A DNA stretch of 64,000 bases from Sedimentisphaerales bacterium. Lineage in GTDB: Bacteria > Planctomycetota > Phycisphaerae > Sedimentisphaerales > Anaerobacaceae. Numbering within the stretch: the first letter of the stretch is position 1; each line of letters begins with the position of its first letter. The notes below the pieces were generated by a model. That model made no database searches and was not told the origin of the DNA. It saw nothing but the letters and a program-made list of their open reading frames with translations. Shown here in pieces: positions 451-15,254 of the stretch. Location: positions 3,264,001 to 3,328,000 of the forward strand of contig OY970194.1 in NCBI GenBank assembly GCA_963708075.1, given 5' to 3'. The translations under genes and the position numbers were made by a program.

Positions 451-2475
451 CTAACCCATCCCGAGGGCGGACATCTGGTTGCGGAGCAGGGCCAGCGTCT
501 TTTCGAGGCGGGCGAACTTCGCCACGAGACGGGCTTCGCGGTCGGTCAGGCGCTGCTGTTCCATCTCGATCCTGTCCTGCAGGTGCTCGATCTGGTCTTC
601 GGCCTGGCCCTGGTCCAACTGGAGCGTGCCGGTGGTGGCCCTGAGGACCCGATCCAGGACATTGGCCATGGCGCCGGCGAAGCCCTGCTTGACGCGGACC
701 GTGGCGGTGAACGTGCCGTCCTGGCTCAGGTCCACGCTCAACTGCAGGCCGTTCTCCGGGTTGACCGGCTCGCTGTCGACATCGAACGTGCTGTCGCCCG
801 TAACGATATTGCCGTTGATGGCGGCGTCGCGATAGGCGGCCTCAGTGGATAGCTTCATCCTGGCGCCCGTAATCACCCCACCGGCCACGGTCACCTCGAC
901 GTCGTAGGCGGCTGCCGTGGTGTAGTTGCTGGAGGCCCCGTAGAACTCGATCGTGTTGCTGTCGGAACTGCCTGTTTTGTCGGCCCCGATGATCGCCAGG
1001 GCGCCCTGGTAATCCTCCGCGATGGCCTCATCGAACGCGCTGCCGCTCAGGCTCATCATGCCGTCGCCGTCGAGATCGATGCCGATCTGGGCCGGGGTGA
1101 GGAAGGTGTCGGCGTCGATGACAAAGCCGCTGGTCTGCCGCACGAGAGGGGTGCGAAGGTCGTTGACGATGTTGCGCACGACGGAGTCGCCCATGAGCAC
1201 GCCGGCGGTCTTGAGAGCGTCATTGTAGTCGCTTTTCTCCTTGATGAACGCCACCGCGGCATTGTAGGCGGTGACCATGGAGTCAAGCTTGCCCTTGACC
1301 GACGCGATGTCGCGGGTCAGGTTGACCTGGACTGTCCCCGTGTCGTGCAGGTGCAATGTCACGCCCCGGATGACGTCGTCGATCGTATTCGAGCTGCGGG
1401 TGATCCACTCGCCCACGCCGGATGGGTATCCATCCACCTTGATCTGGGAATCCTGGGCCGATTGGGTCTCCGTGAAGTCGGCGGCGGCAAAACCGGCCAA
1501 GCTGGCCACGGTGCTGCCGCCCTGCGTGAGCCGGCTGACGGCAGGAGTGTCGAATGTCGTGGCGCCGGAGCCGGCGTTGTACGCCAGGCCCAGCTCCATC
1601 AGGCTGGCGCCGCCGGTGTGGTCGGTCAGGCGGATCTGGCCGTTGACCAGGGTCGCCGTGGCCGTGCCCGCGAAGACGTCGTTGATCTCTTCTACGATGT
1701 GGCCGAGGGTCGTATGCTCGTTGATGGCCAGATTCTGACTGACGGCCGTCCCATCGTGGAGTCTGCCGCTGATCGTGATGTACTCATCTCCGGCGAGCGT
1801 TCCGCTGAACTGGTCGAGCGCCGTGATCCTGTCCGCCAACGCGGCGTTCTCGCTACCGACCGCCAGCGGCGCTTCCATCTGCCAGACCTCCGTGTTGCTG
1901 GCGTTGATCTGGACCTCATAATCCAAGCCGGCGTCGTTGCCGTTGAGCATGAGGTGGTAGGCGTCATTGTAGTAGAGCAGGTTGGCGGTGACGCCCGGGT
2001 TATTCGCATCATTGTTGATCAGTCCCACCAGGTCTTCGAGGGTCGTGTCGGCGGTCGTCGTGATGACCGTCTCCTGGCGGTTGTAGGAATAGATGAACGT
2101 GCCGGCGCCGACGTAGTCCTCCGCGTATTCCTTGCCCGCCGTGTGTGCCCAGCGTTCCCCGTTGGCGAGTTGATTCACGATGACGGTGTGATTGCCTTCA
2201 AAGGCGTTGTGGGAGGCCTCGGCCGTCACGATTTCGGTGTCGCTGGATGCGGTGGCATAGGCGCGGAGCGTGCCGGCGTCGGACAGGGCCGCCGTGGTGG
2301 TCTTGAGCGTTTCGAGCTTGGTCTCTATGGTGCTCAGAGCGTTCTTGCGCTCATTCCAGACGCTCTGGCGCTGCGCATACTGGGTGAGCGTGCGTTGCTC
2401 CATCGCCATGAGCTGGCTGATCAACTGGTTCGTATCGATTCCGGTTAAGAGCCCCGGAAGCCGCAAGTCGCCCAT
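451..2475 (-). CDS. fliD: Flagellar filament cap protein FliD
   Basis: N-term GLLTGIDTNQLISQLMAME; ITRSSNTIDDVIRGVTLHL; C-term LVAKFARLEKTLALL; 674 aa. Confidence 0.95.
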   Translation of the reverse strand: MGDLRLPGLLTGIDTNQLISQLMAMEQRTLTQYAQRQSVWNERKNALSTIETKLETLKTTTAALSDAGTLRAYATASSDTEIVTAEASHNAFEGNHTVIVNQLANGERWAHTAGKEYAEDYVGAGTFIYSYNRQETVITTTADTTLEDLVGLINNDANNPGVTANLLYYNDAYHLMLNGNDAGLDYEVQINASNTEVWQMEAPLAVGSENAALADRITALDQFSGTLAGDEYITISGRLHDGTAVSQNLAINEHTTLGHIVEEINDVFAGTATATLVNGQIRLTDHTGGASLMELGLAYNAGSGATTFDTPAVSRLTQGGSTVASLAGFAAADFTETQSAQDSQIKVDGYPSGVGEWITRSSNTIDDVIRGVTLHLHDTGTVQVNLTRDIASVKGKLDSMVTAYNAAVAFIKEKSDYNDALKTAGVLMGDSVVRNIVNDLRTPLVRQTSGFVIDADTFLTPAQIGIDLDGDGMMSLSGSAFDEAIAEDYQGALAIIGADKTGSSDSNTIEFYGASSNYTTAAAYDVEVTVAGGVITGARMKLSTEAAYRDAAINGNIVTGDSTFDVDSEPVNPENGLQLSVDLSQDGTFTATVRVKQGFAGAMANVLDRVLRATTGTLQLDQGQAEDQIEHLQDRIEMEQQRLTDREARLVAKFARLEKTLALLRNQMSALGMG

Positions 2476-2589: not shown

Positions 2590-5500
2590 TCAGGATTTCA
2601 GCGTCACGGTCGCACCTGCCGTCACCGGCCCGGTATCGATCATTTCCAGCTCGAAGCGGTCCCCGTGGTCCGCGCACCACTGCCGCACATCGGTCGTGAT
2701 GCCCCGCTCGAAGTAATCCTGGAGGAATTCCCTGGCGGCTGCACTATCATGGTTCTCAACCTCGCGATGCAGGTGGGGCAGGCTCTGCTCCTTCATGTCC
2801 AGGGCATGAAGCGCCATGGCCCTGAGCAGGTCGAAATTCCTCATCCGCCGGGCCAAACCGCGATCCATTGCCTCAATGCCGTTGAGCATGCTCGCACAAC
2901 TGATGTGATAAGCGTGGTTGAACAGCCACACGGCACTTTCCAGCAGTTGCTGGAGCAGGCGGCGGTCGAGCGGCTCGCTCTCCCAGATGGGGATATGGGC
3001 CTTGAATCTCAGCAGGAAATCGGAGCAGTTGCACTCTCTCAACTGCCGGCCGATATCGCCGCTTGGCTCGGCCTGTATCTTCTCGCGAATCTTCTGCAGT
3101 TTGCATTCGCAGTACTGGCGGTACCGCGCTCTCTTATTCCGAGGGTCAAATGTGGACACCTGGTGCGTCTGGCTCATCGCGTGCACGCGGATGAAGGTCA
3201 GGTACTCAGGAACGTTCTTCACTTTCCAGCGTGCCGTCCGCCGGATGTATTCGCCGAGCTTGGCCGACCAGAACGAATCCGATGCGAACGGATTCTCATC
3301 ATAGGGCCCGATCTCGTCGAACAGTGATTTGCGAATCATGGCCGAGCCATGGCTCATTCCATGTCGCCAGGAGGTAAACCGCTCGATGATCTCCTCCTGC
3401 GCCGGAGGCAGGTCGTTGCACTCCGTGTACTCCAGCCCCCGCCAGTGATCCAGGAACGTCCGGTAGCAGGAACCGACCATGGCCAGGCGCGGGTCCTGCG
3501 AGATTTCGCGATGGAGGGTTTCGAGCTTGGCGGGACTCATGATGTCGTCGGCGTCCTGGATGACGATGAAATCGGATGCCGCCTGTGAAATCGCGAAGTT
3601 CCGCCGGACGTAGGGACCTCGATTGTCCTCGAAGTGGTAGGGTCTTATACGTGGATCGAGCCGGGCGTACCTGTCAATGATCTCCCGCGTTCCATCCGTG
3701 CTGCCGTCGTCGAGCAGGAGAAGCTCCCATTCCTGCAGACTCTGCCCTCGAACGCTCTCGATGCACTCGCTCAGGTGCGTCTCACAGTTGCGACAGGCCG
3801 TCACTATGGTGACCTTGGGCCCGGGAGACCCCGCTTGGACCGGACGGACTGCCTGCGTGTCGGTTCTCATCGAACTCACGCAGCGGACGGCGGCTCCCCG
3901 CGCAAGCGACGAGGAACGCATCCGATTCAGACGCTCCCGCACGTTCAGCATTTTTCGCTTCTGGTCCGGCGGGACCTTGACATGGGGATTACCCAGCAGG
4001 CGGCCGTAAACCCGATGGACGTCCTCATAGCGATTCTGCTGCGCGTAGCACTGGGCCAGGAGCGTGCAACTTGCGACGTAGCACTCGCCGAGATTCGTAT
4101 AATCCATGAATTCCGACTGGCCGCGGTCCAGTCGCCCCAGAGCGAGCTGCCCTTCAAGGCAATCGAGCGTTGCCTCAAAGTGTCCCTGTGCCCGGTCGGG
4201 TTTGCCGAGGCGGACATACGACGCACCCACCGCATAATGCGCCTTCGGCGAGTCCGGCTTGCATGCCAGCGCCTTCTCACCCCACTCGACCGCAAGGGCG
4301 GGGAACAGCCTCTCGAAGAACAGGGCGTTGTCTTTGCCCTGCCTGTACTGCTCCTCTTCGGCCCGCCCCTGCGCCGCGTACAGGCTCTCGACGAATCGCA
4401 GGAAAGCGAGTTCGGTTTGCTCCTCCTTCGGTTCGCCCTGCCGCATCTGCTTGAGATGCTCGATGCAGAGCCGATTCTCCAGAGAGAATTCATCCACGGG
4501 GCATGCATGCTGGCGCTGGGGACCGGTATAACGGACTACGATTTCCGGGCAATAGAGAATTGGCCGTTGCGGTCCTTCCCCGTCTGTATAGATGCGATAC
4601 GACAATTGGATCGCGCCGCGATGGAACGCCGTCGGCGGGAATCCGCCCAGACGCGTGAGCGTGTCCTTTCGGAAGGCACAGAACTCATCCGTATCACACG
4701 CAGCATAGACAGCCACCTCTCCCAGGTTGTAGCGACGGGGCTGGTCTTCACCGGGTCTGCCGAGGATTCGACCCCGCAGCCCGTTGATGTCGTACCTGCC
4801 GAACCGATCGAGAACGCCTTGCACGAAGCTGTTCTCAGGAATCGTGTGCTCGTCCAGGAAGGCGATGAATTGGCCCCTTGCATGAGCGGCGGCCGCATTT
4901 CTTTGCTCCCACCGGCTCGCCTCGGCCTCGCGAGCCATAAGCAGGACGCCAAAATCCAACCGTGCCACGAGCGAGTCAAGAACCTGCCTGCAGGCCGGGG
5001 GAACAAGCGCTATCACCTCAAACGCTTTCTCGGTTTGTTCGTTCAGCCGCCGGAAGAGCTCGTGACACTGTGCCACATTCTCACCGACCTCAACCACGAT
5101 GGAAAGGTGGACGGTATGGCCATTTCTGCAGTCCATCAGCGGCTCCACCGGACACAAGCGGACAGCTTGCAGAGTATCCTTCTTCACTGTGCCGAAAGCC
5201 ACATCACGGACAATCTCGTGGCGCTGGGCCCTCGTCCAGCATATGTCTTGTCGCTCCAGGTATCTTCTGCAGAAGTCGCGGGCCACCTGCGTTCCGTGTG
5301 TCTCGAATTCGCGCTGCAGGCACTGGCGGCTCTGCTCGGGTAGCGCCAGCGCAAAATACGCCAGCCCCCGGACCAGGTCATAGCACCGCACGCTGCGCGC
5401 AGCGTCTTCGACGAGTCGCTCCACGATGCCACACGTCTCGATGCACCGGACGAATTGTCCCTTGGTGAACTGAGAGAAGATCCGGGCAATGAATTCCTCG

Positions 5501-8500
5501 GCAATCCGGCTTGTCAACGGTTCGTTGGCCCACTGCTGAAAGAGATGGCCGTGCCTGGCGACAAAGTCATTGCAGATGGACTGGCGAAGTTCGGCGCGGA
5601 TGTCCGTGTTCGGGTTGGCGTCGAGCCGTTCCCTCAACTTCCGGATCTGGCTGCGGCGGTAGTCTCTGAATTTCGCTCGCGGGCTGCGGGGATCGAACGA
5701 GGGCAGTTTCTCCGTCTGCGAGTTCAGATGCATCCGCCGCAACGTGAGAAACTCCGGGATGTTCCGGAATCGGACCGCATCTATCCGGCATGCGTACTCC
5801 ACGGCCTTGAGCAGCCAGAAGGAGTCGGAGCCGAACGGGTTCTCATCGTAAGGGCCGATCTCTTCGAACAGCCTTTTGCGGATGATGGCGATGCCGTGCG
5901 GGCAGAAGTCGGACGTGCCGTACGTGCGGTACATGTCAAGGATTTGCTCGTGCGTGGTCGCGAGGGGCACATCCTCGGTATGCTCCGCGTCCGGGGAGCC
6001 GTCGAGAAACATTCGGTAGAACGAGCCCACGATCCCCAGCCGATCGTCCTCTGTGATCGCCTTGTGCAGCCGCTCGAGCTTGTTCGGAGCCATGATGTCG
6101 TCCGCATCGTGAATCACGATGAAATCAGCGGCGGCTCGCCCCATGGCGTAGTTGCGCCGGACGTACGGCCCTTTGTTGTCGTCGAAGCAGAAGGCTTTGA
6201 TTCGCGGGTCGCGCTGCGCGTAATCCTCGATGATGCGCCGCGTCCCGTCCGTGCTGCCGTCATCGAGCAGGAAAAGCTCCCAGTCGGGCATCGTCTGAGC
6301 CAGAATGCTGTCGATACACTGCGGCAGAAACGCCTCCGCCTCGTAACACGCCGTGACGACAGTGACTTTCGGGCGCCCCAAAGACACAGGTCCCGTTGGA
6401 GTAGTCTGAGCCCCGGATGGGTCAAAGGGATTACCCTGCAGCCGGGTAGCTTGTGTCGGCACGCTGAACATTGGCGACAGGTGGTCCTGCGGGCGGTTGG
6501 CGGCGACGGAATAGAGGACCGCATCGATTTGCGGCAGAACCTGCTCCGTGGACCATCGCTCCTGCACGCAGGCGAGATACTCGCGCCGGTCGAAGTCCGC
6601 CGACAGGACGATATCGCGGCATTCCTGGGCCGTGTTGAAGATCCATTTCTCCGGGTAACAGCTCCCGGCGCCGGGGTAGTTGTGGATCACCGGCTTGAGC
6701 CCCTTGGCCATGCCTTCGAGGATGTTCACCGGATGGCCTTCCCGGATGCTCGTGGAGAGGATGAAATCCTTGTCGTCCAACCAGGAACTCACGTCGTCCA
6801 CGCGGCCGTAATAGAAGACACGGTCCTGAATCCAAAGCTCTCTTTCGATGTGCCGGAGGTAGTGCTTCAGTTCGCCCTGGTGCAGCTCATCGCCGAACAG
6901 CTCGCCCGCAATGTGCAGCGTATAGCCGGGATCGGCGGCCAGGATCTCACGCAGGCACTGCATCAGGAAAGGCAGGTTCTTGGCCGGACGCAGAGAGCCG
7001 ACGAACGCCAGGCTCTTGCCACGGGCCCGGTCGACAAAGTTGAACCTGGTCAGATCGACACAGTTCGGCACCACGTGTGTGCGGACTCTGGTCTCGATGT
7101 CCGGGACCTGGTCTTTCAGAACATCGCGAATATACGGACTGACGAAGATCAGATCGTCGACGTTTTCCCAGTGAATCTTCTGGGGGAACGAGCAGAATGC
7201 CTCGAAGCTGTGCAGGCGAAGAATGGTCCTGCATCGCCGCGGTTGTTTCGTCACCCGGACGGCGAAATCCGTGGCCCATTCGATCCAGCATACATCCGCG
7301 GTTTGCAGCGCCCGCGCGATGTCCTGCTTCTCATTGCAGTCCACGACCCACACATCATGGGACGCACGCAGGTGTGCCAGAATCTCGCCCATGAAGGACA
7401 GATTGTTCTTGTGAGGCAGGATGGCGATCTTCAGTCTCGTGGCCTGTACAGGTACAGCCGCGCCCGTGCAGATTTGTGACCCCGGCGTCTCCCGTCGCTG
7501 GGCTTCCTGTCGTGCATACTCTGCGTACTGGTCCTGCATCTCCTTCTTCGCGTTGGTGATCGCCCCCTCCCACCGTCTCAATGCGTACAGGTATTCACCG
7601 ATGTTGCGCAGCTCGCCGATCTCGCTCAATCGCAGCCACAGGTCATAGTCCTGGGCAAATTGGAATCGCTCATCGTAGCCGCCGGCCTCGATCAGGGCGG
7701 ACCGCCGCACCATGGCCGTGCCGTGGGCCATTCGGTTCCTGGCCACAAGCTCCGCCTTGATGTCCGCAGGCTCCGTCGGCAATCGCCACTGGCCGCAGAC
7801 TTTCCCCTCTGCATCGATCCTGGCGCACCAGCAGCCCACGACAAGGCATGCAGGATTTCCTTCCAGGACCTTCGACTGCTTTTCGAATCGCTGCGGCAGC
7901 GAGACATCGTCGGCATCCATGCGTGCGATGTATTCCCCCCTGCACAGCTTCAGACCGACATTCAGCGATTTTGTCAGGCCCTGTCTCTGGGCGTTCCTGT
8001 AGATCGCCGTCCTCGAGTCCTTCCCGTCGAGCAGGATTTCGGGCGTCCTGTCGGAGCTTGCGTCGTCGACGATGATGAACTCGAAGTCCTGGCAGGTCTG
8101 GCGGTAGATGCTCTCCAACGCCTGAGGCAGAAATTTCTCGCCATTATGCACGGCCATCAGCACGCTGATTTTCGGCTTGTTGGTCCAGTCCTTGTTCTGC
8201 TCCGTGTCCGGTATGCACGCGTTCCACTGGTCCTCGTAGTAGCGTTTGACCCTTTCATTGTGCCCCTGCAAGTAGACGATGTCCCGGTCGTCGATGTATT
8301 CGTACAATCGTTCCTTGACGGCCGTGTGATACAGGTCACTGTAGGGAATGCCGGTAAATACGTTGCGCCAGACCCGCGTGGGCTTGATTTCTTCCAGCAA
8401 CTCGTTTGTCTCATGCAGGTCTGCCTCCGTCTCCCCCGGCACGCCAATAACCGTACTGGCGATCGTCTTGATCCCCGACTCGCGGCACCACCGGAACGCA

Positions 8501-9492
8501 TCGCGGATCTGGTCCGTGGTGATATCCTTATGCATCAGGTCCAGCATCCTCTGCGAGCCGCTCTCCACGCCGAAGTAGAATCCCTTCGCCCCCGCCCTCG
8601 CCATCAATTGCACCAGCTCCTCGCTGAGGTTGGACACCCGCGTCTCGCACACCCAGGAGATGCCCAGGTTTTTGCGCTGCAGCAGGCCGCAGAACTCCCT
8701 CAATCGCCCTTCGTTCAGGGTGAAATTGTCTTCCCGGAAGTAGATTCCCTTGGCCCCGTACTTGTGAACGAGATGCTCGATGTCCGAGACAATCCGCTCG
8801 GCACTGAAGGAGGTGTATTTCCTGCCCCAGACCGAGTTGACCGAACAGAAGGCGCAGCGGAACGGGCAGCCGCGACTCGTATTCATCGTGAAGACGGGGG
8901 CGTCACCGATCAGCTTCATGCTCCAGTCGTAGGGCAGATCGATGAAGCAGTCCCACGCCGGCATCGGGAGCGTATCCAGATCGTCGATCCGCGGGTAGCG
9001 GACGATGCGATCCGTGACCTTGCCCGCGACGATGTCCCGGATGGCGTACTCGCCCTCGCCCTGCACGATGAAGTCCACGAAGCCGGGAATCGTCTGCGGC
9101 GCCACGGCGGCATGAGGTCCGCCCACGACGATCTTGCCCCGCCATTTTCCCGTCTCCCTCAGCCGCTGCATGGCGTGGAGCATCCGAAGCGTGTCGCGAA
9201 AACAGATCGTGTTGGCGTAAATGCCCACAAAGTCGATGGCGTTCTTTTGGAGGTATCCGGTTTCGAGAAAGTCGCTGGGTTGCAGGTAGTTGTCGATGAA
9301 GGACACCTTGTGCCCGGCATCGCGCAGCACGGAGATCAGGAAGCCGATCCCTATGGGCGGCCGCTTCTCCCGCGTCGAAAACGGCGACTGCGCCGGCGCC
9401 GCCGAAGTGACCAGCAGGACTCGCCGGCCGCCGGAATGCCCTTCCCCATGGTTTGTACCGGACAAGATGACCCCGCTTTCTTTTGGATCCAT
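2590..9492 (-). CDS. Giant (~2300 aa) multidomain protein: B12-binding radical SAM + GT2 + GT4 + GT2 + degenerate GT2 + TPR + GT2
   Basis: GGPHA and SRGCPFRCAFC radical-SAM motifs; three GT2 domains with DD(A/G)S and DADD; GT4 with EGHPVNILE; start placed at ATG 9492 behind GAGG, 7 bp after the upstream stop (ORF track extends to 9558). Confidence 0.9.
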   Translation of the reverse strand: MDPKESGVILSGTNHGEGHSGGRRVLLVTSAAPAQSPFSTREKRPPIGIGFLISVLRDAGHKVSFIDNYLQPSDFLETGYLQKNAIDFVGIYANTICFRDTLRMLHAMQRLRETGKWRGKIVVGGPHAAVAPQTIPGFVDFIVQGEGEYAIRDIVAGKVTDRIVRYPRIDDLDTLPMPAWDCFIDLPYDWSMKLIGDAPVFTMNTSRGCPFRCAFCSVNSVWGRKYTSFSAERIVSDIEHLVHKYGAKGIYFREDNFTLNEGRLREFCGLLQRKNLGISWVCETRVSNLSEELVQLMARAGAKGFYFGVESGSQRMLDLMHKDITTDQIRDAFRWCRESGIKTIASTVIGVPGETEADLHETNELLEEIKPTRVWRNVFTGIPYSDLYHTAVKERLYEYIDDRDIVYLQGHNERVKRYYEDQWNACIPDTEQNKDWTNKPKISVLMAVHNGEKFLPQALESIYRQTCQDFEFIIVDDASSDRTPEILLDGKDSRTAIYRNAQRQGLTKSLNVGLKLCRGEYIARMDADDVSLPQRFEKQSKVLEGNPACLVVGCWCARIDAEGKVCGQWRLPTEPADIKAELVARNRMAHGTAMVRRSALIEAGGYDERFQFAQDYDLWLRLSEIGELRNIGEYLYALRRWEGAITNAKKEMQDQYAEYARQEAQRRETPGSQICTGAAVPVQATRLKIAILPHKNNLSFMGEILAHLRASHDVWVVDCNEKQDIARALQTADVCWIEWATDFAVRVTKQPRRCRTILRLHSFEAFCSFPQKIHWENVDDLIFVSPYIRDVLKDQVPDIETRVRTHVVPNCVDLTRFNFVDRARGKSLAFVGSLRPAKNLPFLMQCLREILAADPGYTLHIAGELFGDELHQGELKHYLRHIERELWIQDRVFYYGRVDDVSSWLDDKDFILSTSIREGHPVNILEGMAKGLKPVIHNYPGAGSCYPEKWIFNTAQECRDIVLSADFDRREYLACVQERWSTEQVLPQIDAVLYSVAANRPQDHLSPMFSVPTQATRLQGNPFDPSGAQTTPTGPVSLGRPKVTVVTACYEAEAFLPQCIDSILAQTMPDWELFLLDDGSTDGTRRIIEDYAQRDPRIKAFCFDDNKGPYVRRNYAMGRAAADFIVIHDADDIMAPNKLERLHKAITEDDRLGIVGSFYRMFLDGSPDAEHTEDVPLATTHEQILDMYRTYGTSDFCPHGIAIIRKRLFEEIGPYDENPFGSDSFWLLKAVEYACRIDAVRFRNIPEFLTLRRMHLNSQTEKLPSFDPRSPRAKFRDYRRSQIRKLRERLDANPNTDIRAELRQSICNDFVARHGHLFQQWANEPLTSRIAEEFIARIFSQFTKGQFVRCIETCGIVERLVEDAARSVRCYDLVRGLAYFALALPEQSRQCLQREFETHGTQVARDFCRRYLERQDICWTRAQRHEIVRDVAFGTVKKDTLQAVRLCPVEPLMDCRNGHTVHLSIVVEVGENVAQCHELFRRLNEQTEKAFEVIALVPPACRQVLDSLVARLDFGVLLMAREAEASRWEQRNAAAAHARGQFIAFLDEHTIPENSFVQGVLDRFGRYDINGLRGRILGRPGEDQPRRYNLGEVAVYAACDTDEFCAFRKDTLTRLGGFPPTAFHRGAIQLSYRIYTDGEGPQRPILYCPEIVVRYTGPQRQHACPVDEFSLENRLCIEHLKQMRQGEPKEEQTELAFLRFVESLYAAQGRAEEEQYRQGKDNALFFERLFPALAVEWGEKALACKPDSPKAHYAVGASYVRLGKPDRAQGHFEATLDCLEGQLALGRLDRGQSEFMDYTNLGECYVASCTLLAQCYAQQNRYEDVHRVYGRLLGNPHVKVPPDQKRKMLNVRERLNRMRSSSLARGAAVRCVSSMRTDTQAVRPVQAGSPGPKVTIVTACRNCETHLSECIESVRGQSLQEWELLLLDDGSTDGTREIIDRYARLDPRIRPYHFEDNRGPYVRRNFAISQAASDFIVIQDADDIMSPAKLETLHREISQDPRLAMVGSCYRTFLDHWRGLEYTECNDLPPAQEEIIERFTSWRHGMSHGSAMIRKSLFDEIGPYDENPFASDSFWSAKLGEYIRRTARWKVKNVPEYLTFIRVHAMSQTHQVSTFDPRNKRARYRQYCECKLQKIREKIQAEPSGDIGRQLRECNCSDFLLRFKAHIPIWESEPLDRRLLQQLLESAVWLFNHAYHISCASMLNGIEAMDRGLARRMRNFDLLRAMALHALDMKEQSLPHLHREVENHDSAAAREFLQDYFERGITTDVRQWCADHGDRFELEMIDTGPVTAGATVTLKS

Positions 9493-9499
9493 CACAAGA

Positions 9500-11092
9500 C
9501 TACCTCTTCTGGGCTGCGAGAATCCCGAATTGCCTGTCCACGAGCTGAGCTGACCCAAAGACTGTTTTCAGAAGCGCACCTATTTCCGCCTCGGAATACT
9601 CGCGGATGTGAGCATATGTCGAGGTCTGCACTCCCTTGCCTGTCAGCGGCGTGCTCAGAATCAGCATCCCGCCGGGTTCGAGCACCCGGTGGATCTCATG
9701 GAGCGTTTTGGCCAGTTGGACGGGCAGCAGATGTTCCGCCACCTCTGACAAAACGACATTCGTGAATGATCTGTCCGCGAATCGCAGGCAGGTCGAGTTG
9801 GAATAGATGAATTGGAGTGTCGGATGCTCCTTTGCCGCGATCTCCACCGCCTCCGTCGAGTAATCACAGCCGACCACATTTGGGCATTTGCGGGCAAGCA
9901 GGCCCGTGATCATGCCTTCTCCGCATCCCACGTCGAGAACGCGGTCCTCGCCGTCCACAAGTGACGCGATTCGCCGGCCGCGTTCACTGACATACTCGCT
10001 GATCTTTGCCGGCATGCCGTGGAGGGCCGCCCGTTCCCTCTGATGAAAATCCCAGGTGTCGCTATACCGTTTCCGGATCACTCTCGCGGGCGAGCCCGCC
10101 GCGATGCACGCCATGGGGACGGATTTCGTGACCGTGGAGTTGGCGCCGATGACGGCCCCTTTGCCTAGCGTGACATCGTCGCACAGGACAGCACCCGCCC
10201 CGAGCCAGTTGTCGCCCATTAGAAAGATTCCTCTTCCGACATTCGGCTGCTTGGTGATCGGGACATCGAAACTGTCGAAGGTGTGGTTCTGGGCGTACAG
10301 GCCGCAGTGAGGGGCGATGATCGTCCAGTCGCCGACGTAGATGCCGCCCTTGGCGTGAAAGACGGTGTAGTGATTGAGCACGCAGTGGTCGCCAATGACG
10401 ATCTCGCCGCCTTCCGCTCGAAGGACGACGCCCTTGCGAATCACGCAGTTGGCGCCGATCCGGACGTGCTGCGGCGAATCGATCACAACATCCGGGTCGA
10501 TGAATGTATTGGCGCCACAGGAGATAGAGACGCAATCCTTGTCGAGGCCTCTTACAGAGCACGTGACGGCCGGCGCGGTCGGCTCCGGCTTCTCGTCGAT
10601 GGGCCCAAGCTGTTCCAGCAATGCCTGGAGTCGTCCGACCTTGCGATACAAGGAGTGTCTTACCAGCACGAACCTGCCCGTTTCCGAGATGCTCAGCTCG
10701 TTGCCGGAATCCTCAAGTTCCCGGATGGATTCGTCCATGGCGTCCATGCGGAAGTCGAAGATCTCCCGCACGAAGAGTAGATACGTGCCTCGTGCCGACG
10801 CGGCACAGAGATCCATCAGAGAGCCGGACGACGCCGTCCCAGGGAGATCGATGAGGCGGACATTGGACATGGATATCCGGGCTGGAAGTCTCTCAGCGTC
10901 TGCCACCGTGTTGCCGAGGACAATCTCATAACCGCCGGTTATGTCCTGTCCGCTCAGTCGTGCCACATAGGCCATCAACTCGGATCGCGGAGACGAGGCC
11001 GGCAGGATGATGGAACACCGCACGCAAGCCCGGCCCGCAGAACGAGCGTCCGCCACGACGGCGGATTTGCTTTCAGGATACGTGCTTTCCAT
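9500..11092 (-). CDS. Fusion: degenerate GT2-like domain + hexapeptide-repeat (LbH) acyltransferase + class I SAM methyltransferase
   Basis: IGANCVIRKGVV/IGDHCVL/LGKGAVIGANSTVTKSVP repeats; VLDVGCGEG motif I; EVAEHL...EIHRVLEPGG. Confidence 0.85.
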   Translation of the reverse strand: MESTYPESKSAVVADARSAGRACVRCSIILPASSPRSELMAYVARLSGQDITGGYEIVLGNTVADAERLPARISMSNVRLIDLPGTASSGSLMDLCAASARGTYLLFVREIFDFRMDAMDESIRELEDSGNELSISETGRFVLVRHSLYRKVGRLQALLEQLGPIDEKPEPTAPAVTCSVRGLDKDCVSISCGANTFIDPDVVIDSPQHVRIGANCVIRKGVVLRAEGGEIVIGDHCVLNHYTVFHAKGGIYVGDWTIIAPHCGLYAQNHTFDSFDVPITKQPNVGRGIFLMGDNWLGAGAVLCDDVTLGKGAVIGANSTVTKSVPMACIAAGSPARVIRKRYSDTWDFHQRERAALHGMPAKISEYVSERGRRIASLVDGEDRVLDVGCGEGMITGLLARKCPNVVGCDYSTEAVEIAAKEHPTLQFIYSNSTCLRFADRSFTNVVLSEVAEHLLPVQLAKTLHEIHRVLEPGGMLILSTPLTGKGVQTSTYAHIREYSEAEIGALLKTVFGSAQLVDRQFGILAAQKR

Positions 11093-11423
11093 AGGTCCTC
11101 AGCATCTGTCTGCCCCGCCGGACAGCCTGGAGAGAAGTGGACGTTTCCTCGCGCTGTGCGGTCAGCGTTAGACAGAGCTCCTGGTAGAGCTGCAGAAGAC
11201 ACTGGCGAGGGTCATTGCCGCCAAGCTCTGAGAGCGTGCCCGATGCCAGAATCGCACGTACGAGATGGCCGGTATGCTCACACAGGCCCTCCGCAGCGGC
11301 TAAACGGCCCTGATGCACCAGCTTTAGCTGCTCTTCCAGCAACTCGTGCAACTTATCAAGCATCGCCTTGGCATCTGCCGTGGCTGCCCCGTTCGGTTGT
11401 TCGCCTGTACATTCGTCGCTCAT
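11073..11423 (-). CDS. Small all-helical protein, FlgN/FliT-like chaperone candidate
   Basis: 116 aa, coiled-coil character, LQAVRRGRQMLRTY C-terminus resembles FlgN/FliT-type ends; overlaps both neighbours. Confidence 0.5.
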   Translation of the reverse strand: MSDECTGEQPNGAATADAKAMLDKLHELLEEQLKLVHQGRLAAAEGLCEHTGHLVRAILASGTLSELGGNDPRQCLLQLYQELCLTLTAQREETSTSLQAVRRGRQMLRTYGKHVS

Positions 11424-12037
11424 CGGACCTCCGCATTCATATGGTCAACTTCTTCCAGGAGATTGGCGGCATCGCGGTGGGTCGGCTCCAGGGCCAGGAG
11501 GTTCAGCAGCATGGCCTTCGATCGCTCCGGCCGGCCGTCTTTCAAAAGCAGCGCCGCCAGGGCGAACATCACCGACGTGTCGCCCGGATGCATCTGGAGA
11601 TACACCTCCAGGTAGTAGATGATCTTCCCAAAGGACCCCATCTCACAAGAGACCTGGAACATGCCGAGCAAGGCCGTGATATTGTCCGTGTCGAGTTCCA
11701 GCGATTTCATGTAGAGATCGAAAGCCTGGGGGAAATCCCGCCGCTGCTGTGCGATCATCGCCAGGCCGGCGTAGGCCTTGGCGCACTTCGGGTCGAGCCG
11801 ACAGGCCACGCGAAACGCGATCTCCGCGTCATCCAGCTTGTGCTTCTGCATTGCCGCCACGCCCAGTCCCACGTAAGGCCCCGGCTCATCGGGCCCGAGC
11901 GAAGCCGCCTTCTCATAGCAACGCTGGGCCTGGTTGTAATTGCCGGTGGAAGTATAACAGTCCCCCAGCTCGCGCAAGACCTCGTAGTGCTGTGTGTGCC
12001 TGTGCCGATCCATATCGTTCATTCGTGCTGTAGTCAT
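11420..12037 (-). CDS. TPR protein
   Basis: Tandem TPR-like units (LGDCYTSTGNYNQAQRCYEKAASLGP; AYAGLAMIAQQRRDFPQAFDLYMKSLELD). Confidence 0.85.
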   Translation of the reverse strand: MTTARMNDMDRHRHTQHYEVLRELGDCYTSTGNYNQAQRCYEKAASLGPDEPGPYVGLGVAAMQKHKLDDAEIAFRVACRLDPKCAKAYAGLAMIAQQRRDFPQAFDLYMKSLELDTDNITALLGMFQVSCEMGSFGKIIYYLEVYLQMHPGDTSVMFALAALLLKDGRPERSKAMLLNLLALEPTHRDAANLLEEVDHMNAEVR

Positions 12038-12043
12038 GAATAT

Positions 12044-13735
12044 CTAAGCCCCGAAGTTCTTAAAACGGCTCGACGATGTCGAACAGCAGTCTCTTTCCGG
12101 ATGAGCCGGAATATATACGTGAGTCCCGAGCATCTGCTCGGCCTGGCAGAGCAGCCGGATCGCCGCGATGAAATCCTCTTTCCGGCGGCAGATGTTGGCT
12201 TCCAGCAGCAACGTGTCCACCGTCGGACGTTCCCGATTCACCTGGCCGCTCAGCCGGCCCGCCCTGAGATGGTCCCCCGCCTCGAAGTACGCCCGGGCGG
12301 CCATCGTCGTCATCCACAGTTGATTGCCGAAGCGCTGGCCCATGCGCTCGAACAGCCGAGCCGCCGCAGTCCATTCGCCGTCGGCCTCGGCCTGTTTGGC
12401 CTGGCGCAGCAACTCGTCGAACTGGAACGGGAGTTCCTCCTCGTTCGGCCGGCGCACCGGGATATTTGCGGCCGCGAGCGACGCCTCCACGGCCAAGTGC
12501 CTGTGGGCCCTTCGCGCCTGGTCCAGATCGGTCCGCCGCAGCACGGCCGCCCAGGATTGCGGGGTGGCGCCTTCCAGCAGGAAGCCCTCCTGGGCCGTGC
12601 TGTGCATCAGGGCGTAAAGGGACTTCTCCACCCACATCTCCTCGACGGCCATATTCCCCGGCAGGGTCGCCACGTAGTCGCCTTCGCACCTGGGCAGCGT
12701 TGCGTCGAGTCGGTCGGCCATGGAGCTGAGCGGATTCACCGGCACGAGCTCGACATTGGGCATCTGGACATTCAACCGGCCCATATCCGCAGCCGGCAAA
12801 GGAATCAAGAGCTTGTACGGATAGAATGTATATCGCCAGACGCGCAGCATCACGTTGACGGTCTGCTCGTCCAGCTTGTCCGCCAGGAGAATGATGGACA
12901 AGTCCTTCATCTTCGGCCAGGGTTTGGCCGGCCGGGTCGTGCGAATCTCCAGGATGTTCCGCAGGTACTCCTGCGGGTCCTTGCGCTGCCGGCAGGAGAT
13001 ACGGTCGGATTCCCCCGCCGGACTGTAGAACTCCCCGGTGACGATGGGGACATGATGGAAATCCGAGAAGAACGAAAGCCGGCGAGTGATGTCCCAGTCG
13101 ATGAGGATGTTCAACTGCTCGTTGTACAAGCCGGTCCTGTCGAGCAGGTCCCGCCGGTGCATCAGGGAGACGTGCAGGACGTGGTTGAAGTGAAGCATCA
13201 GGAAGGGGTCAAAGTCCCGGCTGATCTCCACCTGCTTGCTCAGGACCCGCCGGTCCCCGCCGGGCATCACCTCGCAACAGGTCTTGTACAGGTCGCTGTA
13301 CGCCGCCTGGCAGTCCGTCGGGCCTTCCAGGGCATCGACCAGCGTCCTGACATGATCCGGATAGTACACGTCATCGTCATCGAGATAGGCCACATACTTG
13401 CCTCGGGCCCGGGCCAGGGCCTCGTTCAGCGAGAACGGCTTGCCGCGATTCTCTTTACGGTCGATGAAAACTACGCGGGAATCGGGAAACGATCGAACGA
13501 CGTCACCGACCTCTTCCCCGCCGTCGCGGACGATGAATATCTCCAGATCGCGGTAGGTCTGCCGCAGCACGCTGGCGAGCGCCTCTGCCAGGTACCGGCG
13601 CCGGTTGTACGTAGGCAGCAGAACAGTGACCAGCGGCCCGCGTTTGCCGCTCTCGGCGGACACTCGCCGGGAACGCACGGGGCGGTAGTCCCGCCATGCG
13701 TTGAAAGGATCGGGCATCACTGGTGGAAAGGTCAT
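12044..13735 (-). CDS. GT2 glycosyltransferase with second degenerate GT2-like domain and C-terminal TPR-like helices
   Basis: VTVLLPTYNRRRYL...VRDGG...YVAYLDDDD; later DLSIILL...GDYVATLPG lacking DxD. Confidence 0.9.
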   Translation of the reverse strand: MTFPPVMPDPFNAWRDYRPVRSRRVSAESGKRGPLVTVLLPTYNRRRYLAEALASVLRQTYRDLEIFIVRDGGEEVGDVVRSFPDSRVVFIDRKENRGKPFSLNEALARARGKYVAYLDDDDVYYPDHVRTLVDALEGPTDCQAAYSDLYKTCCEVMPGGDRRVLSKQVEISRDFDPFLMLHFNHVLHVSLMHRRDLLDRTGLYNEQLNILIDWDITRRLSFFSDFHHVPIVTGEFYSPAGESDRISCRQRKDPQEYLRNILEIRTTRPAKPWPKMKDLSIILLADKLDEQTVNVMLRVWRYTFYPYKLLIPLPAADMGRLNVQMPNVELVPVNPLSSMADRLDATLPRCEGDYVATLPGNMAVEEMWVEKSLYALMHSTAQEGFLLEGATPQSWAAVLRRTDLDQARRAHRHLAVEASLAAANIPVRRPNEEELPFQFDELLRQAKQAEADGEWTAAARLFERMGQRFGNQLWMTTMAARAYFEAGDHLRAGRLSGQVNRERPTVDTLLLEANICRRKEDFIAAIRLLCQAEQMLGTHVYIPAHPERDCCSTSSSRFKNFGA

Positions 13736-15183
13736 CTCTGGTTCACGCTGGTCTGTGGGCCGGACATGGTGAGCGATTGCAGGTCAATCTCCGTCTCGAG
13801 CTGCGTGAGAATCCCGTTGACCTTCTTGAGCTGTTCCTGCAGCGGATAACGTTCCTGCACGAACCGGCGGTAATTCTGGGGCTGGTAATCCTGGGACAGG
13901 ACCTGCTCGCAGAACTGCTCGGCGATATTGAACAGGTATGCGGACGGGAACAGCTTCTCGGCCCCCGGAAAGTTGTGGATCACCGGCTTCAGGCCGCAGG
14001 CCATGCCGGCCAGCAGCGCCTCCACCTGGTGCTCGCCGATCCCGCCGGCGATGACGAAGTGCTTGTCGCTGAGCCAGGCATTCAGGTCCCCCGGGTACGG
14101 CTCGAAGAAGACGACCCCACCCAGGCCCAGGGTCTGAACCATGTACCGGACGTATTGTTCCAGCGAGGGGCTCTCGAAGACTCCCGAGAAAAACAGGTGA
14201 TATTGAGGATCGATGTAGTGCAGCTTCTGCATGCATTGAAGCAGGAAGGCGGGGTTGGCCTCCATCGTGAGGCAGCCCATACATGCAAGAGCCTTGCCGT
14301 GCGTTCGCGTGCGGAAGAGATAACGGTCCAGGTTCACGCCGTTCGGCACGACCACCAGGCGCGTCCGATTGCGGATATCAGGCACGTGGGGCAACAGCGT
14401 CTCCTCCACGGCCGAGCTTCCGATCTCAACCAGGATGTCCACGTCCTCCCACCGGACCTGTTTGGCCCAACGGTCGCGGATGTCGCAGCGGCGCAGGCTG
14501 ACAATCACCTTCTTCCGCTCGACCCGTCGGGACGCCTCCACGAGCATCTCGCCTCCCCCATCGAACCAGCAGATGTCGGCCCACTGCATCAGCTCGGCCA
14601 GCTTGCCGGAGTCTGTCCCGGCGTGGAACTCAGTCGTAAATCGCTGACGCACGAATTCGCACACATCGGCGAGGACCCCGTCCTCGGCACTGCCGCCGCG
14701 GAAGAACGCCACCTTCGGCCTCTTGCCGCGGACCACATCGAGGATCGGTTTGAGCACCTCCTGCTCCGGCCATAAGCGGTACGAGCGGAGAAGCACCTCC
14801 ACGGCCTGGCCCTTCTTGCCCTGGTCGAGCAGCATGGTGGCTGTGCGGTTGAGGACTTCAATGTTCAGGATGCCCAACCGCTCCATATTCTCGAACAGTT
14901 CCGCCGCCTCGCCGGCCATCCCGCCGCCGAGATATGCCTCTACAAGATTCCAGATGATCTCGCCACTACCGCCGTTGAGATCGCGGGCCCGCATGAGGCA
15001 GGCAATCGCGTCGTCGGTCCGGCCCAGGCAGTGCAGGATGGCCCCCGCGTCGTTCAGGGCCTGCACGTCGTGCGGTGTGGTCCGCAGGTGCTCGCGGATG
15101 CAGTTGAGTCCCTCCTGGTACTTGCCCTTCTCGGCAAGCTGCAAACCTCTCTGGTAGTAGCTCAAGTCCGTCTGTGTTGCCAT
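13732..15183 (-). CDS. TPR + GT4-fold protein, probably catalytically impaired
   Basis: N-terminal TPRs; VVPNGVNLDRY and GMACGLKPVIHNFPG; start at ATG 15183 behind AGAAGGAG (the ORF-track start 15243 lies inside the sigma54 promoter). Confidence 0.85.
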   Translation of the reverse strand: MATQTDLSYYQRGLQLAEKGKYQEGLNCIREHLRTTPHDVQALNDAGAILHCLGRTDDAIACLMRARDLNGGSGEIIWNLVEAYLGGGMAGEAAELFENMERLGILNIEVLNRTATMLLDQGKKGQAVEVLLRSYRLWPEQEVLKPILDVVRGKRPKVAFFRGGSAEDGVLADVCEFVRQRFTTEFHAGTDSGKLAELMQWADICWFDGGGEMLVEASRRVERKKVIVSLRRCDIRDRWAKQVRWEDVDILVEIGSSAVEETLLPHVPDIRNRTRLVVVPNGVNLDRYLFRTRTHGKALACMGCLTMEANPAFLLQCMQKLHYIDPQYHLFFSGVFESPSLEQYVRYMVQTLGLGGVVFFEPYPGDLNAWLSDKHFVIAGGIGEHQVEALLAGMACGLKPVIHNFPGAEKLFPSAYLFNIAEQFCEQVLSQDYQPQNYRRFVQERYPLQEQLKKVNGILTQLETEIDLQSLTMSGPQTSVNQR

Positions 15184-15238
15184 CGGCCGTACTCCTTCTG
15201 ACAATCTATTCCCTGAGGGCGCCATTGCTTCAGATTCC

Positions 15239-15254
15239 TGCAAATTGCATGCCG
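15239..15254 (-). promoter_or_regulatory. Sigma54 -24/-12 promoter for the glycosylation island
   Basis: Minus strand CGGCAT-GCAAT-TTGCA, correct GG-N10-GC spacing, ~55 bp upstream of ATG 15183. Confidence 0.7.

Follow-up and report, generated by a model that had tools for sequence, protein, structure and literature searches.

The gene directly before fliD in the window, by which we mean the whole 64,000-nucleotide stretch of Sedimentisphaerales bacterium DNA that was analysed, encodes a 2,300-residue protein in which a B12-binding radical SAM enzyme is fused to a series of glycosyltransferase domains. Because the contents of this position vary between relatives and the C-terminal GT2d end is common to most of the giant genes found there, the gene is one allele of a shuffled, hypervariable slot with a conserved C-terminal end, and not a fixed machine. 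What is conserved, judging from sequence comparison, is the pairing of the radical SAM enzyme with the glycosyltransferase domain GT2a, which is predicted to be a general glycan-tailoring module. Our overall explanation, which we hold to be evenly balanced between right and wrong, is that within an island for flagellin O-glycosylation the giant gene is the component that varies. Each ingredient has precedents, namely glycosylation islands at flagellar loci, transferases with several domains and radical SAM enzymes that act on sugars; a module that joins them is undescribed in the literature that we searched.

The giant gene and its operon

Translation of the giant gene gives 2,300 codons of open frame with zero stops (Table 1). 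Pfam places a B12-binding domain at residues 45-154 (PF02310, 47.7 bits against a cut-off of 32.1) and a Radical_SAM domain at residues 203-365 (PF04055), together with four GT2 stretches (PF00535), a GT4-type stretch at residues 826-942 (PF00534) and TPR repeats at about residues 1739-1833. The CxxxCxxC motif at residues 209-216 reads CPFRCAFC, and the layout is that of class B radical SAM enzymes, a Rossmann B12-binding domain followed by a CxxxCxxC barrel, with a fold similar to OxsB and TsrM. No transmembrane stretch was detected in the protein, which is consistent with our overall explanation. GT2b and GT2d, both followed by a helical tail of 150 aa, duplicate each other within the protein (53% and 32% identity), and a fold model of residues 1680-2290 has a GT-A domain flanked by helical regions and indicates no donor sugar.

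Catalytic motifs are all kept in GT2a, GT2b, GT2d and the GT4-type domain. GT2c reads DEH at the DxD position and RG at the acceptor-base EG; the homologous domains carry EG in six of six cases and DDD in five of six. By these motifs GT2c is a predicted pseudo-enzyme, leaving four apparently intact glycosyltransferases, and we reject the idea of five active ones. The original prediction was of a single uninterrupted frame lying directly upstream of fliD and carrying five glycosyltransferase domains. Its frame and its position before fliD are borne out, its domain coordinates agree with those from Pfam, and five domains of glycosyltransferase fold are indeed present, but with the GT2c motifs lost only four are intact.

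Six of the seven domain junctions are bridged, without a frameshift, by contigs drawn from three studies and four public runs, the best-matching of which is possibly the source sample; a bridge across the GT2a/GT4 junction was absent from the records inspected (32 of 80). The sole indel in the giant frame across the contigs inspected is an in-frame 9-nt deletion, 11 of the 17 substitutions listed are synonymous and none creates a stop (40 of 158 differences inspected), and GC3 stays at 0.67-0.88 along the whole gene. Given the six junctions bridged in frame, we reject an assembly fusion. That several genes were misread as one is extremely unlikely, even with one junction lacking a visible bridge and with broken flagellar frames in two other genomes of the set, since frames at the same position in relatives span 1,323-3,706 aa and the GT2a-GT4-GT2 order is found again in homologue P0008.

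The source genome is a single 7.5-Mb contig, 93% complete. From TPR-GT4 through GT2-TPR, the TPR gene, the small helical protein gene, the acyltransferase-methyltransferase gene and the giant gene to fliD, the intergenic gaps are -4, 6, -4, -20, 7 and 114 nt, the last running from the giant stop codon to the start of fliD; this operon coupling counts in favour of our overall explanation. Soluble glycosyltransferases thus stand within a flagellar cluster, and the island is without a flippase, ABC exporter, membrane anchor or lipid-carrier export genes. The size and place of the 116-aa helical protein suggest an FlgN/FliT-like chaperone. Residues 1-175 of the acyltransferase-methyltransferase (region given as 9500-10035) have no Pfam match and recur in the island genes of several relatives; they may be a decayed GT2. 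The EX7E motif of TPR-GT4 is damaged in the source genome and in three readable relatives of the genus and is intact in most other relatives; the intact GT4 of the giant protein, a member of the same family, perhaps replaces it.

Table 1. Features of the fliD-proximal gene run, in window positions.
Feature	Position	Strand	Basis or remark
2,300-aa radical SAM / multi-glycosyltransferase fusion (P0001)	2590..9492	(-)	translation, Pfam, public contigs
B12-binding (Rossmann) domain	9031..9360	(-)	GGPH and GEGE motifs; N94 and I96 in loop under cobalt
Radical SAM barrel and C-terminal part	8188..8900	(-)	CxxxCxxC at 8845-8868
GT2a, fixed partner of radical SAM	7483..8175	(-)	DxD (RMDADD) and base (QDYDLW) both intact
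GT4-type (GT-B) domain	6463..7425	(-)	EX7E intact; 34% identity to upstream TPR-GT4 gene
GT2b and helical tail	5143..6372	(-)	motifs intact; duplicate of GT2d
GT2c, predicted pseudo-glycosyltransferase	4453..5115	(-)	DxD and catalytic base lost
TPR-like helical repeats	3883..4305	(-)	Pfam and fold model
GT2d and helical tail	2623..3825	(-)	C-terminal module
fliD, filament cap, last gene of operon	451..2475	(-)	
Hexapeptide-repeat acyltransferase and class I methyltransferase	9500..11092	(-)	upstream of the radical SAM as its usual partner
116-aa conserved helical protein	11073..11423	(-)	no Pfam match
205-aa TPR protein	11420..12037	(-)	conserved in island-less relatives too
GT2 with C-terminal helical repeats (GT2-TPR)	12044..13735	(-)	candidate initiating protein O-glycosyltransferase
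TPR-GT4	13732..15243	(-)	second Glu of EX7E lost in source genome

A hypervariable slot and its likely target

We compared 60 relatives, 44 of which have a fliD match and 43 of which could be read upstream of it. The slot holds glycosyltransferase genes in 31 of these 43, is empty in 11 and is cut off in one. Its proteins are mostly single chains of 1,300-4,000 aa, and the 32 that were scanned present a mix of GT2, GT4, GT9, methyltransferase, sulfotransferase, capsule-synthesis and other radical SAM domains. The GT2d module recurs in most giant genes of the genus at about 52-57% identity, with or without a radical SAM domain. The radical SAM domain of the giant protein itself is found in five of the 60 relatives (65-76% identity), always within long frames; the fusion lies directly before fliD in four of them, and in the fifth the contig ends inside the gene. 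None of the 16 relatives without a fliD match carries it. Among the best 120 homologous proteins, none has the same full domain order.

Other contents of the slot are of interest in their own right. At ten loci of genus relatives (L050-L053, L056, L058-L061 and L083) a second island type upstream of fliD encodes proteins of 1,900-3,400 aa, in which Pfam matches nothing over some 1,000 residues or more ahead of TPR-GT2d. Genes for a short-chain reductase and as many as four other radical SAM enzymes come before it, with a thiamine-diphosphate enzyme as well in one scanned case; this gene set recalls branched-sugar (yersiniose-type) synthesis. Distant B12-radical SAM domains (23-28% identity) have also been recruited to the slot (L066:3072-7127 and L076:2347-3861), one of the two being fused to a TOD1/MUCI70 glycosyltransferase-like domain.

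Flagellin is the likely target of the glycan. The source genome has one flagellin gene, fliC, about 21 kb from the giant gene and coding for 269 aa. The GT2-TPR gene occurs in 33 of the 60 relatives, comprising all 31 filled slots, two unresolved slots and none of the 11 empty ones; counted by fliD, it is in 33 of 44 fliD-bearing and 0 of 16 fliD-less relatives, kin that are not independent. Every one of the 26 island-bearing relatives whose flagellin is complete has one of 269-279 aa. Among island-less relatives, seven of ten have or span a flagellin of 394-457 aa and three have a short one, and one further genome yielded no flagellin. Three changes are needed on the FliD tree to account for the island-less genomes, with long flagellins in two of the three groups. 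The tracking of short flagellin with the island is suggestive, with few independent events and three exceptions, and the small number of lineages weighs against our overall explanation; the multi-glycosyltransferase slot proteins are apparently an alternative to flagellin outer domains. A flagellin target fits known systems, namely the stepwise GT2-based glycosylation described for C. difficile flagellin (PMC5207246) and the TPR-guided recognition of flagellin described for FlmG (PMC7591256). A complex prediction for GT2-TPR with flagellin scored 0.00, which speaks neither for nor against the pairing. In two genomes (G021 and G013) frameshifts break up the flagellin and adjacent genes (L222, L228 and L062); sequencing errors are the probable cause.

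We consider it improbable that the glycan is built on another acceptor, be it FliD, the hook, other flagellar proteins, an S-layer, a pilin or a lipid-linked surface polysaccharide. The giant gene does adjoin fliD, yet lies 21 kb from fliC; a Wzx/Wzz polysaccharide cluster stands just past fliS, about 25 kb away; and the family is found mostly outside flagellar loci, with many members in clusters of wzm/wzt, wzx or O-antigen ligase genes. The island, however, lacks any flippase, ABC exporter or membrane anchor, and its presence tracks fliD and short flagellin throughout the order. The cluster past fliS is of Wza/Wzz/Wzx type and includes GT4s and a methyltransferase (L002:1331-17487 (-)), and a stand-alone GT-B glycosyltransferase gene is divergent from the flagellin gene (L001:1462-2637 (+)).

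With flagellin as the acceptor, the cytoplasmic GT2-TPR protein would add the first sugar to Ser/Thr of the 269-aa chain, a step that we assign to this separate gene because it is the more conserved. The giant protein would then lengthen the chain by its four apparently active transferases, probably with the genus-conserved GT2d acting near the core and the variable modules of the N-terminal part working at a greater distance from it. The radical SAM-GT2a pair and the adjacent acyltransferase/methyltransferase gene would supply an outer or capping sugar, transferred by GT2a. The radical SAM enzyme would take a hydrogen from this sugar, either while it is still part of the nucleotide donor or once it has been transferred, and methylcobalamin would then methylate the sugar carbon.

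Radical SAM and GT2a as a conserved pair

A homologue search restricted to proteins of 763-2,175 aa, a restriction that selects for fusions, gave 207 matches. The best 120 of these long homologues share 60-72% identity, and GT2a comes directly next in every one, 119 by script and the last by inspection. An unbiased genome scan confirmed 163 loci, the best 80 of which were kept (46 fused, 31 stand-alone and 3 cut). Calling a domain GT2a-type at an identity of at least 38%, where the other GT2s of the source genome score 22-33%, we found such a domain after the radical SAM in 61 of these best 80 loci; in 38 there is a class I methyltransferase no more than 1.5 kb upstream, and in 23 a hexapeptide acyltransferase ahead. 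AlphaFold folds the radical SAM enzyme and GT2a as one unit (pLDDT 94, pTM 0.91), with GT2a packed directly after. Carriers include Planctomycetota, Thermodesulfobacteriota, Nitrospirota, Fibrobacterota, Chloroflexota, Omnitrophota and archaea, and the closest named homologues are labelled Sedimentisphaerales or Planctomycetota; homologue P0078 carries the label Desulfuromonas sp. An atlas search returned only generic or nameless B12-radical SAM clusters, part of them viral.

Relatives at 31-65% identity also occur on 19 viral contigs, mostly beside GT2 genes. At seven viral loci (L168, L170, L172, L175, L180, L182 and L184) the radical SAM is beside or fused to GT2 genes; L168 is a radical SAM-GT2a-GT2 fusion at 65% identity, and the acyltransferase-methyltransferase partner is present at L184. 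In homologues P0012, P0030 and P0097 a carbamoyltransferase (PF02543/PF16861) is fused to the radical SAM-GT2.

In flanks of up to 10 kb, often shorter, flagellar genes were found near 21 of the 46 fused and none of the 31 stand-alone copies, which makes 21 of the best 80 of 163 loci; two further fused loci have a flagellin-like neighbour. All members of the 13-member clade that holds the giant gene lie in a flagellar island, 12 with flagellar matches and one with conserved island genes, which argues for our overall explanation. The link to the flagellum first proposed therefore holds for the giant gene's own clade and lineage, but not for the family as a whole: since no flagellar gene was found in the flanks of 25 of the 46 fused copies or of any of the 31 stand-alone ones, we reject a flagellum-specific family, and the same numbers weigh against our overall explanation.

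Stand-alone copies occupy surface-polysaccharide clusters (25 loci scanned). A direct search located a wzt gene at 17 loci, no more than three genes upstream in 10, and a Wzt_C domain in 9 of the 17. In the Klebsiella systems described in PMC11231755, a Wzt binding module recognises the terminal cap, and WbbB and ORF6 combine an N-terminal terminator with C-terminal transferases. The position after wzt thus suggests that the radical SAM module is a chain cap, at an uncontrolled background frequency of wzt near glycan genes, and we count it towards the capping step of our overall explanation. The source genome has no match to Wzt_C (PF14524), so capping there would be by analogy, and no Wzm/Wzt exporter is linked to the island. 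Taken as a whole, it is a tentative and rather doubtful proposal that radical SAM-GT2a is an undescribed capping module in which cobalamin radical chemistry yields a C-methylated or rearranged terminal sugar, serving as a Wzt-read export signal in ABC-dependent glycans and grafted onto the transferases that coat flagellins without outer domains and onto phage glycans.

Radical chemistry and known systems

All 72 aligned relatives keep the cobalamin-pocket motifs GGPH and GEGE unchanged; AprD4, which is described as not binding cobalamin (PMC12931638), lacks them. Cobalamin binding by the giant protein's radical SAM domain is predicted from these motifs; as AprD4 illustrates, the fold alone would be insufficient. 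Sixteen B12-binding domains in the source genome score above cut-off and a cobalamin riboswitch is present, and because CobS has no match in the 93%-complete genome, cobalamin would need scavenging; this counts against our overall explanation. The riboswitch (G000:C1:1385616-1385820, -; L217) precedes a gene for a 501-aa secreted-looking protein and a gene with a prepilin-type N-terminal motif, with no obvious btuB.

The named NCBIfam radical SAM models (PhpK, ApyD, BchE, AprD4, HpnJ, MgmA and others) all score below cut-off, the best being PhpK (144 bits against 600) and AprD4 (126.5 against 500). Sequence matches in the PDB are led by AprD4 (E 1e-30) and MgmA (E 1e-20), and fold matches run from OxsB (Z 32.0) and AprD4 (31.4) to TsrM (27.4), MgmA (26.4) and CysS (25.5). 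The lower face is described as hydrophobic in radical methylases and as polar in non-methylases (PMC12931638; also the TokK preprint and PMC13331322). In profile alignment I96 falls on TokK W76 and OxsB G188, N94 on OxsB N186, and V218 on TokK W215 and on a Val of MgmA; among the 72 sequences these residues are conserved in 65 (I96), 66 (N94) and 70 (V218). The lower-face residues thus give a mixed signal for methylation. I96, with the hydrophobic face that it implies, V218 as the MgmA residue and the invariant GGPH and GEGE favour it; N94 on OxsB N186, Val at the position of TokK W215 and the ranking of methylases below OxsB and AprD4, two non-methylating sugar-ring enzymes, tell against it.

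We judge C-methylation by the radical SAM domain to be somewhat the more probable outcome, and other radical sugar chemistry to be possible at a clearly lower level. The polypeptide that the original prediction had building and radical-methylating a multi-sugar glycan is a real, soluble fusion, tied to the flagellar operon in its own lineage, but methylation is only one of two live chemistries.

On the same island and target, a non-methylating radical SAM enzyme, carrying out an AprD4-like dehydration that yields a deoxy-keto sugar, or an OxsB-like ring contraction or rearrangement, and leaving methyl groups to the class I methyltransferase, appears unlikely, though it has several points in its favour: the two best structural matches are OxsB and AprD4, AprD4 is the best PDB sequence match and has FR[D/E] and CETR segments in common with the giant protein, N94 aligns to OxsB N186, and a Tyr ends strand 3 where TokK and OxsB have Ser. 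Yet the identities in those structural matches are only 21-24%, AprD4 lacks both GGPH/GEGE and cobalamin, and I96 stands where OxsB carries Gly. AprD4 also needs a partner reductase, AprD3. Neighbour clustering of 77 loci (the 80 less 3 redundant or cut ones), covering proteins of up to 1,000 aa, found no reductase recurring beside the module, which disfavours a route of the AprD4/AprD3 type. The traits of an AprD4-type diol dehydratase are thus lacking, with no recurrent partner reductase and with cobalamin motifs present.

Far less probable still is that the tethered enzyme methylates a flagellin residue, as MgmA would, or a phosphonate decoration in the manner of Fom3 or PhpK. MgmA is the second PDB sequence match and PhpK the top NCBIfam model, but the strict partner of the module is a glycosyltransferase even at loci without flagella. 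PEP mutase has no match above cut-off in the source genome and is absent from the recurrent neighbours, and we reject the phosphonate route for want of such a match.

Sugar C-methylation, our preferred chemistry, has its nearest described parallels in GenK, GenD1, Fms7 and MoeK5 (PMC9204698), which likewise combine B12-binding and radical SAM domains and methylate carbon in sugar-containing molecules; compared by description, these are stand-alone antibiotic enzymes, none of them described there as fused to a glycosyltransferase. AprD4 (PDB 6FD2) and OxsB (PDB 5UL4) are alike in fold (Z 31-32, rmsd 2.7-2.8 A over about 380 residues) and perform radical chemistry on sugar rings, but differ at 21-24% identity, in the missing cobalamin and GGPH/GEGE of AprD4 and in the Gly of OxsB in place of the giant protein's Ile under cobalt. 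The C. difficile type B system (GT1, GT2 with a methyltransferase domain, GT3), as set out in PMC5207246, resembles the island in its cytoplasmic, stepwise flagellin O-glycan, its GT2-family enzymes and its fusion of a transferase to a methylating domain, with methylation suggested to end extension; it differs in that its three transferases are separate and its methyltransferase is of class I, with no radical SAM enzyme and no five-domain chain described. The Klebsiella proteins WbbB (O12) and ORF6 (O7) and the WbdA/WbdD polymerase-terminator systems likewise join an N-terminal capping module to C-terminal transferases on one polypeptide, and their cap is read by the binding module of Wzt, a setting that many stand-alone radical SAM copies share; unlike the giant protein, they are described as making a lipid-linked repeating polymer with a coiled-coil ruler, ABC export and methyl, phosphomethyl or Kdo caps (PMC11231755). 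The island has no exporter, and the cap chemistry proposed here is radical. Caulobacter FlmG shares the joining of TPRs to a flagellin-acting glycosyltransferase, but has a single GT-B domain and transfers pseudaminic acid; its TPRs are shown to bind flagellin (PMC7591256), a role that is putative in the island.

In the reviews consulted, cobalamin radical SAM enzymes are described as tailoring antibiotics, lipids, cofactors and proteins, and the words glycan, sugar, polysaccharide and glycosyltransferase do not occur in the 2026 review PMC12931638. Three papers place radical SAM genes near glycan genes in passages that give no function (PMC4267127, PMC9723712 and PMC8743553). A search covering mainly the text of openly available papers found no paper on a B12-radical SAM enzyme fused to glycosyltransferases or acting in flagellin glycosylation. 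The fusion to a glycosyltransferase points to a substrate class, within a fragment of 660 residues and two domains. The slot before fliD speaks of glycan pathways evolving through domain shuffling in proteins of 1,300-4,000 aa. The conserved pair predicts an unknown sugar in sediment microbes, and its occurrence over many bacterial phyla, archaea and phages would bring oxygen-sensitive radical chemistry to cell-surface glycan biosynthesis.
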